NCBI GenBank assembly: GCA_963718235.1
Contig: CAVQYR010000001.1
Location: 800,001-864,000 of the forward strand
DNA from: an uncultured Actinomycetota bacterium
Lineage (GTDB): Bacteria; Actinomycetota; Actinomycetes; JAHEKZ01
DNA: 64,000 bases
Reading direction: 5' to 3'
Part shown: positions 47,138 to 57,187 of the stretch, one piece after another
How the letters are laid out: every line of letters starts with the position of its first letter
Position numbering within the stretch: position 1 is the first letter of the stretch
The notes under the pieces: generated by a model
The model's database searches: none
What the model saw: the letters and a program-made list of their open reading frames with translations, nothing else
What the model was told of the DNA's origin: nothing
Translations under genes and position numbers: made by a program

Positions 47138-48193
47138 CTAGCCGGAGCGCTTCTGGCTGCGGGCCAGCGCGATGATCGCGTCGACCGCGGCGGCGGACAC
47201 GTCGGCCTCGTCGGGAAGTGCCGGCTGTCTCGAGGGCGGGTCTGGTGTGCGAGCAGAAGTGGCCGTCTCCGATCTCAGGTCGTCGAGGTCTCCGACCACG
47301 GTCATGCCGAGCGAGACCAGCGAGGCCAGCGAGGCCACGATCTCCTCCGAGCGGTGGTGGGCCCACGGGAGCGCGGCGTCCGGGAGCACGACCCGGGCCT
47401 CGGACTCCCGACGGCTGGCCAGGATCGACTTGCTCAGCCCGGCGCGCAGGACCCGTCCGTACTCCCGTCGGGGCATCGACTCGTCACCGAGCCGCAGGTT
47501 GACCCGGCGCAGCAGCTCCGCGGAGGCGGCGCCCAACGACTCGTTCGCGGTCTGCACCGGCTCGTAGCGCCCGGCGTCGATGTCGAGGGCGCTCGCGAAG
47601 CGGCGCCACAGCGCCAGCGGGTCAGCCGACCTTCGGGGGAGGGTCACCACCGTGACGTGGTCCACGCCGACGACGTCGGACCACACCTTCAGGATCCGGG
47701 ACGTGTCGTGCTGCTCCCAGAAGCTGCGCCCCAGCGTGCTCTTTCGGGGGTGCTTGCTGGTGACCGAGTCGACGTAGTCGGCAAACGTCCAGGTGTGGCC
47801 GAACTGCAGCGACTCCTGCCACTGCGCCGGCACCACCCGAACCAGGTCGCGCACGGTGAGCACGACCCGGACGGTCCGAGCGCCCAGTGCGGCGACCGCC
47901 CGCGCGGCCTGCTCCGGGCGGGCCCGGACCAGGCTCTCCATCGAGATGACGGCGGCTGGCCCCTCGTAGGCGGCGATCTCGTCGACGAGCGCCTGCCATC
48001 TCCCGGCGAGCCGGCCGCTACCCTCGTCGCGGCGCCCGAGCATCTCCTGCGCCCCTCGCACCTGGTCGATCCGGCGCCCCGGGTGGAGCAACCCGTCGTC
48101 GGCGAGCTGCTTCTGGTGCTGCACCAACATGGCCTGCAGGTAGGTCGTACCCGTCTTGGGCTCCCCGACGTGCAGGTGGACCACTCCGGTCAT
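47138..48193 (-). CDS. sulfotransferase-fold (P-loop) protein, copy 4
   Basis: HLHVGEPKTGTTYLQ (5'-PSB-like), ISMESL, RDL..VPAQWQE, NESLG and VVGDLDDL. Confidence 0.75.
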   Translation of the reverse strand: MTGVVHLHVGEPKTGTTYLQAMLVQHQKQLADDGLLHPGRRIDQVRGAQEMLGRRDEGSGRLAGRWQALVDEIAAYEGPAAVISMESLVRARPEQAARAVAALGARTVRVVLTVRDLVRVVPAQWQESLQFGHTWTFADYVDSVTSKHPRKSTLGRSFWEQHDTSRILKVWSDVVGVDHVTVVTLPRRSADPLALWRRFASALDIDAGRYEPVQTANESLGAASAELLRRVNLRLGDESMPRREYGRVLRAGLSKSILASRRESEARVVLPDAALPWAHHRSEEIVASLASLVSLGMTVVGDLDDLRSETATSARTPDPPSRQPALPDEADVSAAAVDAIIALARSQKRSG

Positions 48194-49245
48194 GAGGTTC
48201 CCCGCGTCGAGCGCACGCGGGACAGATAGGCGCTCAGCGCCATGACCGCAGCATCACGAGCGGCAGCGGTCTCGACCCGGGAGTGCCCCGCCGGTCCGGT
48301 GTCGTCGGTGGACGGCACCAGCTCGTCGAGGTCGCCCACGACCCGGTAGCCACGGTCCCGCACCACCGATGCGACCTCGCGCCCGAGCTCGCCCGCCCAG
48401 TGCAGGGACTTCGAGTCGATCGACAGCGGCTGGGCGCTCTGGCCGGCCAAGACCGTCTCGGCGACGAAGCGCTTGACCTCGCTGCGGTACACCGGCCACT
48501 CGATCCCCAGCGTGGACTCGTGGGTGAGCGCCGCGTTCAGCCGGCGGACGACCTCTGCGGACGTGGCTCCCAACGAGACGTTGGTCTGAAGGACCTCCAG
48601 GTCCGCTCCGACGGGTGGGAGACCGACTGCGGCGGCGAACCGCTCCCACAGGAGCGACGGCGAGGAGCCTTTGCGCGGCACAGTGACCACCGTGATCTGC
48701 GCGGCGGGGACGTGCCGCTGCCAGTCGGCCAGAATGGCCGGGAGGTTCTGCCACCGCCAGAATCCCCGTCGCGTGCCGGGCGCCTCCGCCCAGGCCCGCC
48801 GAGCCCGGCGGAGGTACTGCCGTAGCTCCAGGGTGGATCCGTTCTTGAGGTTCTCCTGCCACACGGCCGGCAGCTGGCGGGCGAGGTCTCGAGCCGTCAC
48901 GACGATCCGCAGGTCGTCCGTCGGCAGGTCGGAGGCGATCGTGGCGATCTGCTCGGGTGTGGCAGCGGTGAAGAGCTCGTGGGAGATGAGGACGTCCGGC
49001 CCGCGCCAGGACTCGACGGCGTGGGCCAGCCGGTTCCAGGAGCCGTCGACCCGTGGGTCGCGGTACTCCTTGAACGCGCCGCAGACGTCTTGTGCCTCCA
49101 GGAAGTGGTCTCCGCGGAAGCCGGGGTACAGGAGACCCTGCTTCCGGAGCCACCGCCGGTTCTTGGCGGCGACCGCCTGCACGTACGTAGTGCCCGTCTT
49201 CGGTGCTCCGATGTGGAGGTGCACTGTGGGTCGGCGGGTGCTCAT
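48190..49245 (-). CDS. sulfotransferase-fold protein, copy 3
   Basis: HLHIGAPKTGTTYVQ, ISHELF, RDLARQLPAVWQE, NVSLG and VVGDLDEL. ATGA overlaps on both sides. Confidence 0.75.
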   Translation of the reverse strand: MSTRRPTVHLHIGAPKTGTTYVQAVAAKNRRWLRKQGLLYPGFRGDHFLEAQDVCGAFKEYRDPRVDGSWNRLAHAVESWRGPDVLISHELFTAATPEQIATIASDLPTDDLRIVVTARDLARQLPAVWQENLKNGSTLELRQYLRRARRAWAEAPGTRRGFWRWQNLPAILADWQRHVPAAQITVVTVPRKGSSPSLLWERFAAAVGLPPVGADLEVLQTNVSLGATSAEVVRRLNAALTHESTLGIEWPVYRSEVKRFVAETVLAGQSAQPLSIDSKSLHWAGELGREVASVVRDRGYRVVGDLDELVPSTDDTGPAGHSRVETAAARDAAVMALSAYLSRVRSTRGTS

Positions 49246-50198
49246 CGGCGCGCCTGCCACTGCTGGGGCAGCCAGTGCTGACGGACCGAGTCGATGGTGG
49301 TCTTCAGCCGGGTGGTCATGGCTGAGTCCGCGCGGTGAGGCGACAAAGTGGCGGTGAGCTGCACCAGGGAGCGCAGGGCACCGACCGCGGCGTCCAGCTC
49401 GGCCTCGTCGGTGGCCGGGCCGGGGGCGGTGGGAGCGCCGGGGGTCAGCTCGTCGAGGCTGCCGTGGACGACGTAGCCGCACGCCTCGAGCCGCTCGCGG
49501 CCCTCGGCGCTCCAGTCGGCGACTGCCGGATGGGTCCACAGCGCTGTGTCGTCTGACGTCAGCCCCAGTCCCTCGACGAGTGCCTGGCGCACGGAGGGCT
49601 CGTCGGGGACGAAGCGTCCGTCGGTACCGGCGGCGGTCAAGACGTTCAGCGCCCGCAGCACCTCGGCCGCCGCGGGGCTCATCATCCGGTCGGCCAGCTC
49701 GATCGCAGGGCGTTGACGGGGGGACGCATCAGTGCGCACCTCGTCTTCGCGGTTCCCGGCCGCCTCGGTGAACCTCCGCCACAGCTCGTCCAGCCGTCCG
49801 GGCAGAGGGGCCGTGACGACGTGGACGTGGTCCCCGCCGATCCGCCGGTCCCAGGGTTGCAGGGTCACGACCGGGTCGATCGACCGCCACGGTCCGCTGA
49901 GGCTCTCGTGGTCGGCAGCCAGCCGGTCGACGAACTCCTCGAACGACGCGGTGCCGCCCCGAAGGAGCTCACCCTGCCAGAGCACCGGCAGCTGTCGGTG
50001 CAGGTCCCGGATGACGAGGACCGCGCGCCCCGGTGGCCCGGGGAGGCTGGTCAGGAGCCGCTCGACCTTGGTCTCGTCGCCCGCGAGGTCGGGCGCGGAG
50101 ACGATGCGTCCCGCCGACCCGCCGCTGGCCACCGGGCTCCCGGCGAGGAACGAGGTCTGGGTGTGCGAAGCGCCGACGTGAACGACGACCTCGGGCAC
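49242..50198 (-). CDS. degenerate sulfotransferase-fold protein, copy 2
   Basis: VHVGASHTQTSFL replaces PKTGTT. It retains RDLHRQLPVLWQ, LWRRF, AEVLRALN and VHGSLDEL. AAGGAGG RBS. Confidence 0.65.
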   Translation of the reverse strand: MPEVVVHVGASHTQTSFLAGSPVASGGSAGRIVSAPDLAGDETKVERLLTSLPGPPGRAVLVIRDLHRQLPVLWQGELLRGGTASFEEFVDRLAADHESLSGPWRSIDPVVTLQPWDRRIGGDHVHVVTAPLPGRLDELWRRFTEAAGNREDEVRTDASPRQRPAIELADRMMSPAAAEVLRALNVLTAAGTDGRFVPDEPSVRQALVEGLGLTSDDTALWTHPAVADWSAEGRERLEACGYVVHGSLDELTPGAPTAPGPATDEAELDAAVGALRSLVQLTATLSPHRADSAMTTRLKTTIDSVRQHWLPQQWQARR

Positions 50199-56179: not shown

Positions 56180-56227
56180 GCTTACTCCACTCCTCGGGGA
56201 CTCCGTCAGAAGAATAGCGGGCGGGCG

Positions 56228-57187
56228 TCAGCGGTCGTGCAGTGCAGAGGTGCCGGTGGGAACCCAGCGCGAACGGCGGATCCGGCGTGACTCCTGCCAG
56301 CCCTTGAGCAGGGCGCCGCTCCCCTTGAGCGTGTGCTCGACGTAGACCAGCCTGACCTCCTCCTTGGCGAAGGTGAGGGCAGTTCCCAGCGCGAAGCCGA
56401 CCGGCCGGTAGTGGCCCAGGTGCTTCAGGTAGTGGGCCATGTAGCCACGGTTGCGCATGACGTGGAACCGGAAGAGGTCCGAGGCATCGTTGAGGTGGCG
56501 CACGGCCAGCGACATCTGCCGTTGCTCGCGCTGCCGCTTCAGCGCGAAGTGGTCGACGTACACGACCTTGGTCACGCGAGAGGCCATCAACGCGTAGACG
56601 GCGTCGTCCCAGGTGATGAAGAAGCGTGGGTCGGGCGGACCGATCTGGCTGACCACGTCACGACTCACGAGCATTCCCTCGAAAACCCCCGAGTTGGTCT
56701 CGAAGACCTCCTCGCCGTCGGCGAACGGGTCCTTCAGGTAGGGCAGTGGGATACCGAGGGTCTCGTTGATCCGGGGCTGCCAGAAGAAGGGGCCTCCGTG
56801 GAAGTCGACCCTTCGACCGTGGATGCACCCCGACTCCCCTGCGTGGCGTAGCAGCCCTTCCAGGCCGTCCGGCAGGGCCGTGACGTCATCATCCATCAGC
56901 CAGAACCAGTCGTGGCCGTCGTTGTACGCCGCCACCACGCCGGCGTTGAACCCGCCGCTGCCACCGGTGTTCTCGGTCAGGTACAGCCGATGGACCCGAT
57001 CGACGTCGCCGTACTCGGCGTCGAGGAACTCCCGGGTGCCGTCGGTGCTGGCGTTGTCGACCACGTAGACCGCATCGAGCGGACGGGTCTGCTCGAGCAG
57101 GGTGGGAAGCAGCTCCTCGAGGTAGTCCTTGCGGTTGTACGTGACGACGACGGCCGCCACGGACCAACGGGAGGTCTCCTCAGCCAC
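56228..57187 (-). CDS. GT2 glycosyltransferase (GlfT1-like)
   Basis: VVVTYNR, VDNASTD, NTGGSGGF, WLMDDD and FFITWDD motifs. Confidence 0.88.
   Translation of the reverse strand: MAEETSRWSVAAVVVTYNRKDYLEELLPTLLEQTRPLDAVYVVDNASTDGTREFLDAEYGDVDRVHRLYLTENTGGSGGFNAGVVAAYNDGHDWFWLMDDDVTALPDGLEGLLRHAGESGCIHGRRVDFHGGPFFWQPRINETLGIPLPYLKDPFADGEEVFETNSGVFEGMLVSRDVVSQIGPPDPRFFITWDDAVYALMASRVTKVVYVDHFALKRQREQRQMSLAVRHLNDASDLFRFHVMRNRGYMAHYLKHLGHYRPVGFALGTALTFAKEEVRLVYVEHTLKGSGALLKGWQESRRIRRSRWVPTGTSALHDR

Follow-up and report, generated by a model that had tools for sequence, protein, structure and literature searches.

The question raised by the locus described here is what four tandem paralogous genes contribute to an operon whose other genes resemble the machinery for mycobacterial galactan. 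The locus lies in a 64,000-nucleotide stretch (64 kb; hereafter the window) of the genome of an uncultured Actinomycetota bacterium (NCBI GenBank assembly GCA_963718235.1, contig CAVQYR010000001.1, positions 800,001 to 864,000 of the forward strand), and the four genes are here called P1 to P4. Judging by structure models, the P1-P4 family carries the fold of sulfotransferases that depend on 3'-phosphoadenosine 5'-phosphosulfate (PAPS), and we favour, with modest confidence, a full mechanism in which the operon makes, sulfates, exports and wall-anchors a galactofuranan. Our confidence is higher for the fold, and after it for PAPS-dependent transfer by P1, P3 and P4, than for galactofuranan as the acceptor and for the link to peptidoglycan.

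Gene calls in the window (guanine-cytosine (GC) content 67-74%) were based on third-position GC analysis combined with Pfam and NCBIfam models and frame checks. They give a single co-directional and tightly packed run on the minus strand (59522-47138), consisting of a TIGR03089 family gene, a LytR-CpsA-Psr (LCP) ligase gene, a family 2 glycosyltransferase (GT2) gene, glf, glfT2, wzm, wzt and P1-P4. The initial annotation, made from the sequence alone, had described LCP, GT2, glf, glfT2, wzm and wzt genes in one direction, followed by four paralogues and a second LCP gene, and this content, order and strand are borne out by Pfam, NCBIfam and the frame checks; of the interval given for the cluster (47138-57187), the core genes lie inside and both LCP genes just outside. 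P1 occupies 50254-51459 (with its GTG start at 51459 or 51450), P2 49242-50198, P3 48190-49245 and P4, the last gene of the run, 47138-48193. Within the run, glf and glfT2 overlap at GTGA, glfT2 and wzm by 11 nucleotides (nt) and wzm and wzt by 13 nt, and the GTG of P1 either overlaps the wzt stop codon (GTGA) or lies, as an alternative start, 5 nt beyond it. P1 and P2 are separated by 55 nt containing AAGGAGG, and ATGA overlaps couple P2 to P3 (49242-49245) and P3 to P4 (48190-48193), as previously proposed for the second to fourth copies. A scan for promoters and terminators gave no signal exceeding shuffled expectation. Sediment metatranscriptome contigs (run X10) match P1 over 346 nt without mismatch (51019-51364) and, apart from a single mismatch, wzm over 201 nt (52228-52428), a weak hint of transcription of these two genes because DNA carry-over is possible and the coverage is fragmentary.

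In the alignment, P1, P2 and P3 share 30-35% identity with P4, and P1, P3 and P4 have in common the motifs H-x-G-x-PKTGTT, R-D/N-L-x6-WQE, N-x-SLG and VVGDLD. Such motifs (HxGxPKTGTT, WQE, NxSLG and VVGDLD) had at first been attributed to all four copies, but in P2 they have become GASHTQTS, WQG, DRMMS and VHGSLD. In the other three proteins the GxPKTGTT loop (GAPKTGTT in P3, which also has RDLARQLPAVWQE, and GEPKTGTT in P4) directly follows strand 1, contains the catalytic-loop Lys and, as read from the sequence, is not a kinase Walker A motif. P1-P4 are predicted to be cytoplasmic because all four lack signal peptides and membrane segments.

For P3, an AlphaFold model based on 36 sequences had a predicted local distance difference test score (pLDDT) of 92.6 and a predicted template modelling score of 0.91. 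When this model was compared exhaustively with 48,161 PDB representatives using VIA-align, the 20 best structural matches were all sulfotransferases, the best being the sulfotransferase domain of human NDST1 (1nst_A; Z 16.1, 231 residues aligned, root mean square deviation 3.8); 3-OST-5 scored Z 15.6 and an Alicyclobacillus enzyme (3rnl) Z 15.4, with P-loop kinases ranking only from Z 8.8 down. Likewise, all nine Foldseek matches of P3 with E ≤ 1e-3 were sulfotransferases, the top ones being 3-O-sulfotransferases, and the choice between sulfotransferase and kinase folds that the initial annotation had left to structural comparison falls on PAPS-dependent carbohydrate sulfotransferases. The P2 model (pLDDT 79.6) also retains the fold, with Z 12.1 to 1nst. 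The likeness to the NDST1 domain 1NST, to 3-OST-1, 3-OST-3 and 3-OST-5 and to the bacterial 3RNL (Z 15.4-16.1, 227-235 residues aligned) includes, for the heparan-sulfate sulfotransferases, a PKTGTT-like 5'-phosphosulfate loop with the catalytic Lys and a strand-turn-helix with the 3'-phosphate Arg. The family differs from these enzymes in its low identity to them (10-12%), in having Ala for the 3'-phosphate Ser in most members, in about 100 extra C-terminal residues, in the motifs WQE, NxSLG and VVGDLD, and in consisting of soluble bacterial cytoplasmic proteins encoded in tandem arrays. In a language-model atlas, unnamed actinobacterial clusters rank first, and the nearest clusters bearing a Pfam domain carry Sulfotransfer_1 or Sulfotransfer_3; 23 of 36 family members give sub-threshold matches to Sulfotransfer_3 (best E 7.2e-5), and weak tblastn matches were found in Rhodobacterales and in Gloeothece plasmids, some of them annotated as sulfotransferase-domain proteins.

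Polysaccharide sulfotransferases are marked, according to PMC11625862, by a Lys in the loop, a Ser in the helix that binds the 3'-phosphate and a base that is either His or Glu. We took a census of residues over 81 loci (78 related loci, introduced below, and three loci of relatives) with 212 distinct copies; at any one position, 199-202 of these could be scored. Of 202 copies, 193 have the loop Lys, and the Arg starting the 3'-phosphate helix is invariant (199 of 199); in the WQE motif, W is found in 195, Q in 199 and E in 184 of 200 copies. In the window, P1 combines the loop Lys and the 3'-phosphate Arg with the canonical Ser, a position occupied by Ala in P3 and P4 and by Val in P2.

P2 is a degenerate paralogue and, according to its alignment and structure model, a probable pseudo-sulfotransferase, which in addition to its altered motifs lacks some 60 residues after the loop. 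An orthologue with 69% identity (P0122) shows both the degenerate loop and the deletion, and a P3 orthologue (P0002) is 79% identical. Since P0122 shares the exact defects of P2, the defect is old and maintained, and P2 is probably a conserved pseudo-enzyme, catalytically dead to judge from its sequence. Further, in nine Actinomadura and Spirillospora loci an intact copy (with GAAKSGTT or GAPKSGTT) is followed by a same-strand copy in which the loop Lys is missing (GAPTAGTA or the like). All nine of these loci contain glf, glfT2 and a sulfatase gene, and eight of them also wzm and wzt, the ninth (L054) being on a short contig. Their degenerate copies form one clade of eight (support 95) and the intact partners a clade of nine (support 76); the degenerate clade therefore indicates one retained event in the Actinomadura/Spirillospora lineage, separate from that of P2. 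Two matched stretches within one protein also occur among the 150 best cluster representatives, and 18 long proteins from this set (555-849 amino acids (aa)) were checked for fusions with a simple pattern that may miss diverged loops: seven have two Lys-bearing loops, and in one (P0210) the first loop is degenerate and the second 3'-phosphate motif normal. These patterns suggest that the copies work in pairs, of which one member may be non-catalytic.

A supply of PAPS is encoded in the same genome, as the initial annotation had proposed to check: cysD (458.8 bits), cysN (569.5 bits) and an adenosine 5'-phosphosulfate (APS) kinase gene (195.1 bits) are adjacent at C1:1908001-1910764. A second, weak APS_kinase match, just beyond the window, was rejected as a generic small P-loop kinase. 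In three related loci (L009, L012 and L015; two from Actinophytocola and one from an uncultured organism), cysD, a cysNC fusion and a family gene share one direction, with the cysNC stop codon abutting the family start codon, and this arrangement appears to be the strongest single pointer to PAPS.

The family is large. A word-indexed search gave at least 1,937 relatives, and the 120 of them that were listed have no precomputed Pfam domain. In a full profile search the numbers of cluster representatives were 19,420 at E ≤ 1e-3, 6,277 at E ≤ 1e-10 and 2,413 at E ≤ 1e-30. A scan of one genome per prokaryote species gave 644 relatives, and the best 78 loci, all of them from Actinomycetota (Nocardioidaceae, Actinomadura, Spirillospora, Thermomonospora, Pseudonocardiales, Jatrophihabitans and Geodermatophilaceae), were used for the analysis of neighbourhoods. 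Neighbours were counted by tblastn with the window proteins (E ≤ 1e-8, at least 50% coverage), and the counts are lower bounds, many contigs being short. There are at least two family copies in 58 of the 78 loci, at least three in 23 and at least four in 17, with a maximum of seven. In 26 loci glfT2 is at most 10 kb from the family, and glf, wzt and wzm are co-located with it in 20, 14 and 13, respectively, so that the linkage to glf, glfT2, wzm and wzt recurs in other Actinomycetes, as the initial annotation had suggested examining. In the genome studied here glfT2 is single-copy (one Glft2_N match genome-wide), and for a single-copy gene we estimate a chance occurrence in a 20-kb span of roughly 0.2-0.7%. 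A sulfatase gene is present in 11 of the 78 loci, bona fide Sulfotransfer_2 or Sulfotransfer_3 genes adjoin family copies in four (L029, L033, L024 and L005), and the other neighbours in annotated loci include genes for GT1, GT2, GT4 and GT8 glycosyltransferases, LicD, AT3-SGNH and pyruvyl transferase.

Closer to the source organism, each of the 19 genomes from its taxonomic family has 2-15 matches to the sulfotransferase-like family, which also occurs in 3 of 21 other families of the class (1 of 19 when the unpublished G025 and G033 are excluded). The same operon is syntenic in a genome of the same genus (G001), where identity to the window genes is 77% for LCP1, 89% for Glf, 83% for GlfT2, 69% for Wzm, 64% for Wzt, 78% for P1 and 78% for LCP2. 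The variable part comprises the GT2, with 38% identity, and three distal family copies that are 37-48% identical to any window copy. The comparison therefore points to a core that is kept and decoration genes that can be exchanged, a pattern known from glycan loci that vary with serotype. P1 holds the same position next to wzt in G001, and in a FastTree phylogeny of 202 copies its nearest neighbours are copies adjoining glfT2 in G001, G010, L003 and L006.

The pathway for mycobacterial galactan consists of Glf, GlfT1, GlfT2, Wzm-Wzt and Lcp1 (PMC10951656, PMC13018209 and PMC13649706), and the operon resembles it in encoding Glf, a GlfT2 with three domains, an exporter of the ABC-2 type (Wzm/Wzt) and an LCP ligase, as well as in a predicted route by which the polymer is assembled on a lipid carrier inside the cell and then exported. 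On the minus strand, glf (55007-56179; Pfam GLF 270.6 bits) encodes UDP-galactopyranose mutase and glfT2 (53067-55010) a polymerising galactofuranosyltransferase with the domains Glft2_N (120.7 bits), Glyco_tranf_2_3 (GT2_3; 78.3 bits) and GlfT2_domain3 (156.4 bits). The exporter consists of the ABC-2 permease Wzm (52181-53077; ABC2_membrane 33.3 bits) and the ABC ATPase Wzt (51456-52193; ABC_tran 46.5 bits), which with 245 aa has the nucleotide-binding domain only and no C-terminal carbohydrate-binding extension. Unlike the mycobacterial proteins, Wzt and Wzm score low against the models NF050108 (78.8 bits against a cut-off of 400) and NF050109 (31 against 380), though these are their best-scoring NCBIfam models. 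Upstream, the GT2 gene (56228-57187; Glycos_transf_2 90.1 bits) encodes a candidate primer or adaptor transferase, which had been called GlfT1-like; the likeness holds for about the first 105 positions (1-105 of 290 in NF050113) and not overall, the score of 79.4 bits against a cut-off of 330 making it no GlfT1 equivalog. A further difference from mycobacteria is that all genes stand in one operon with two LCP genes, the four sulfotransferase-fold genes being appended.

No Emb-type arabinosyltransferase (PF04602) was found in this 95%-complete genome, with a positive control in C. glutamicum, the Aft families not having been searched. The earlier statement that the window contains neither arabinosyl- nor mycolyltransferases stands for the former (none in 43 window open reading frames scanned), mycolyltransferases not having been specifically searched. 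Three LCP matches were found genome-wide, and the two strong ones are those flanking the operon: LCP1 (57194-58636, minus strand; LytR_cpsA_psr 165.8 bits, LytR_C 62.5 bits) and LCP2 (45469-46929, minus strand; LytR_cpsA_psr 164.1 bits), which begins 208 nt downstream of P4. Both have an N-terminal membrane anchor, with a hydrophobic peak at residue 27 in LCP1, and the presence of two strong flanking ligases fits a predicted attachment of the polymer to peptidoglycan. A search of the 95%-complete genome for a teichoic acid polymerase of the TagF type gave none, and galactofuranan would be the main LCP-attached polymer and, if sulfated, the anionic polymer of the wall.

We infer sulfotransfer, PAPS as its donor, galactofuranan as its acceptor, the role of P2 and the linkage to peptidoglycan, and the proposed mechanism would proceed as follows. 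A lipid-linked galactofuranan would be built on the cytoplasmic face of the membrane, with Glf forming UDP-galactofuranose, the GT2 acting as primer or adaptor and GlfT2 polymerising. Before export, the soluble P1, P3 and P4 would move sulfate from PAPS, provided by the CysD, CysN and CysC of the genome, onto hydroxyls of the polymer. P1 would be the conserved copy tied to the galactan, and P3 and P4 would belong to a strain-variable set probably setting different positions or patterns, with P2, having lost its catalytic loop, probably serving one of its neighbours as a non-catalytic partner. Once modified, the polymer would be flipped by Wzm/Wzt and attached to peptidoglycan by the two LCP ligases encoded on either side of the operon, the product being an anionic wall polymer that needs no phosphate.

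Several results weigh against this mechanism. The chief internal weakness of the sulfotransferase reading is the canonical 3'-phosphate Ser position, which is Ala in 171, Ser in 21 and another residue in 7 of 199 copies. Its register was set by hhalign between the family profile and a canonical sulfotransferase that this genome also encodes (GPDKAGSSW ... VTLRDPADRAFSSY), an alignment that brings together both the 5'-phosphosulfate loop and the 3'-phosphate strand-turn-helix, weakly (probability 12.9%), and was used for motif register alone. In the same weak alignment the candidate catalytic base, D53 of P3, which corresponds to D in P1 and to E in P4, pairs with the D of the canonical KDLYFFD, an uncertain assignment; D53 is nearly invariant, as is H47, the region of both is deleted in P2, and the position of D53 is the one that we take to hold the catalytic base in 3-OST enzymes. 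P4 matches Pfam Sulfotransfer_3 (PF13469) with 22.7 bits, below the gathering cut-off of 27, P1, P2 and P3 do not match it, and no NCBIfam model matches any of the four. PDB sequence searches with two family profiles returned no sulfotransferase and no sequence-level relative (matches to a designed helical protein were dismissed as chance). One of the four copies is probably dead, no sulfatase was found in the 64-kb window and none of the six sulfatase-family matches of the genome lies near the operon. APS kinase occurs in 21 of 23 relatives with the family and in 12 of 18 without it (19 of 21 and 12 of 18 excluding the unpublished G025 and G033), which discriminates weakly, these genomes being kin and non-independent. 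For the 3'-phosphate site, the loss of which the initial annotation had regarded as decisive, the outcome is divided, with an invariant Arg and a Ser that is mostly Ala, and it neither refutes the sulfotransferase reading nor leaves it clean. A fold put to another use (transfer of another group, use of APS or another nucleotide as donor, or a non-catalytic role as polymer-binding or chain-length factor) would accommodate the Ala majority, the sub-threshold Pfam scores, the conserved degenerate copies and the family-specific invariant Q of WQE (199 of 200) and H11, which have no assigned role. We nonetheless hold such a use to be unlikely, with the loop Lys and the 3'-phosphate Arg almost universal, all 20 top structural neighbours being PAPS enzymes and sulfatase genes as neighbours in 11 loci; the operons joining cysD and cysNC to a family gene, moreover, argue for PAPS and not APS because they include the APS kinase domain.

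The proteins may also be true PAPS sulfotransferases with an acceptor other than the galactofuranan of the operon, such as a glycolipid, a lipid-linked primer, a second glycan or a small molecule, co-location then reflecting envelope co-regulation. In mycobacteria, sulfotransferases with this fold modify trehalose lipids (Stf0; PMC11625862), and in loci of Nocardioides and Jatrophihabitans the family adjoins genes for GT4, AT3-SGNH, LicD or GT8. Within the DNA examined, no glfT2 was found in 52 of the 78 related loci, and the source genome has five further family copies elsewhere, three of them solitary and without glycan genes nearby; the family is therefore not specific to galactofuranan, which also counts against our mechanism, and it is best understood as a sulfotransferase family of general use on glycans or the envelope, with the P1 lineage tied to galactofuranan. 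For the operon itself we regard a different acceptor as improbable: its family genes are translationally coupled to wzt and bracketed by two LCP genes, the P1 clade travels with glfT2 in G001, G010, L003 and L006, and the occurrence of glfT2 in 26 of 78 loci is far above the estimated chance level. In O-antigen pathways dependent on ABC transporters, terminators of the WbdD type add methyl or phosphate caps, and a sulfate placed only at the non-reducing end could similarly stop GlfT2 and set chain length. This option had been raised in the initial annotation and agrees with a pathway that depends on an ABC transporter and has its modifying enzymes in the cytoplasm, coupled to wzt. It would, however, require more than a 245-aa Wzt without carbohydrate-binding extension offers for reading a cap, and a single cap needs fewer enzymes than the three to seven copies found in a locus, in sets that vary between strains, which makes it very unlikely in our judgement. 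Of the sulfated or otherwise capped wall galactofuranan that had been proposed, sulfation and LCP attachment thus find support in sequence and structure models, and capping appears less likely than decoration at multiple sites.

Sulfated polysaccharides are classic in animals and algae, and among rhizobia Sinorhizobium LpsS is a polysaccharide sulfotransferase. Mesorhizobium loti KpsS, likewise a rhizobial polysaccharide sulfotransferase (PMC11625862), offers a parallel for the cytoplasmic, PAPS-dependent sulfation of a bacterial surface polysaccharide that is predicted here; as described there, it is set apart by another phylum and another polymer, and neither galactofuranan nor LCP ligases nor tandem arrays are associated with it. 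In actinomycetes, sulfated polysaccharides are still only suspected according to a 2026 paper (PMC13390465), which presents the wps-1 cluster of Actinoplanes missouriensis as encoding a predicted sulfated glycan, Wzx/Wzy-dependent and with its chemistry pending, and cites the cyanobacterial synechan cluster xss beside it. As with wps-1, a sulfated actinomycete glycan is predicted here from sulfotransferase genes within a polysaccharide cluster. By that account wps-1 specifies an exopolysaccharide and its two sulfotransferases are recognised by standard domain models, in contrast to the Wzm/Wzt exporter, GlfT2, flanking LCP genes and family beyond curated models described here. We found no report of a sulfated galactofuranan or a sulfated actinomycete wall polymer in the open-access literature, and the open-access papers likewise gave no instance of the setting of ABC exporter, GlfT2 and LCP ligases, of the unrecognised family with its Ala-for-Ser signature, of the variable arrays or of the conserved dead partners.

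A number of observations concern related clusters and neighbouring genes. In L006, a polysaccharide pyruvyl transferase gene (13313-14485, plus strand) directly follows five family copies behind glf-glfT2-wzm, and would bring a second anionic modification to this type of cluster. In Thermomonospora catenispora (L040), an Emb-type arabinosyltransferase gene (12295-15420, plus strand; Arabinose_trans 312.7 bits) lies about 1 kb downstream of a family gene and adjoins GlfT2 and sulfatase genes, which looks like arabinogalactan-type machinery outside the mycolate-producing actinobacteria. Elsewhere in the source genome, a second tandem family pair (C2:327818-329953, plus strand; L102) is located beside genes for a 640-aa GT4 and an FkbM-type methyltransferase and may be a second sulfated-glycan module. 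A canonical Sulfotransfer_3-like gene (C2:192914-193628, minus strand; L096/L097) is apparently split across two reading frames, with the 5'-phosphosulfate loop in one and the 3'-phosphate motif in the other, possibly through a frameshift or as a pseudogene.

Within the window, the TIGR03089 family gene (58644-59522, minus strand; 186 bits against a cut-off of 85) is the probable first gene of the run, sits 7 nt upstream of LCP1 and also adjoins LCP1 in G001. Beyond LCP2, a gene for UDP-glucose 6-dehydrogenase (43561-44880, minus strand; three UDPG_MGDP_dh domains) is separated from it by a plus-strand thioesterase gene (44994-45494), and its membership in the wall-polymer system is uncertain. 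A GtrA-family membrane protein is encoded about 1.7 kb from the dehydrogenase gene (41283-41816, minus strand). Additionally, three paralogous GAF-GGDEF proteins are encoded near each other on the plus strand (31238-32989, 33055-34722 and 37683-39383), interleaved with genes for a carboxyltransferase and a bacterial PH-domain protein.

The joining of sulfation genes to well-understood galactan machinery of the mycobacterial type and to wall ligases leads to a specific prediction, that of a wall-bound sulfated galactofuranan, and this prediction is directly testable because cultured Actinomadura, Spirillospora, Thermomonospora and Haloechinothrix carry the same cluster. More tentatively, and as a possibility that we consider doubtful, pairs of active and dead subunits in strain-swapped arrays would write a variable sulfation pattern on the peptidoglycan-linked galactofuranan, giving a phosphate-free stand-in for teichoic acid and a variable surface met by phages and neighbours. 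If true, the conserved active/dead pairs would be a tractable bacterial case of pseudo-enzyme partnership. As a large family that escapes the curated cut-offs of Pfam as well as NCBIfam, it also implies that many genomes are under-annotated for sulfur-dependent envelope chemistry. For the organism studied here, the cell wall probably bears a sulfated sugar polymer of a kind that would be without chemical precedent in the phylum.

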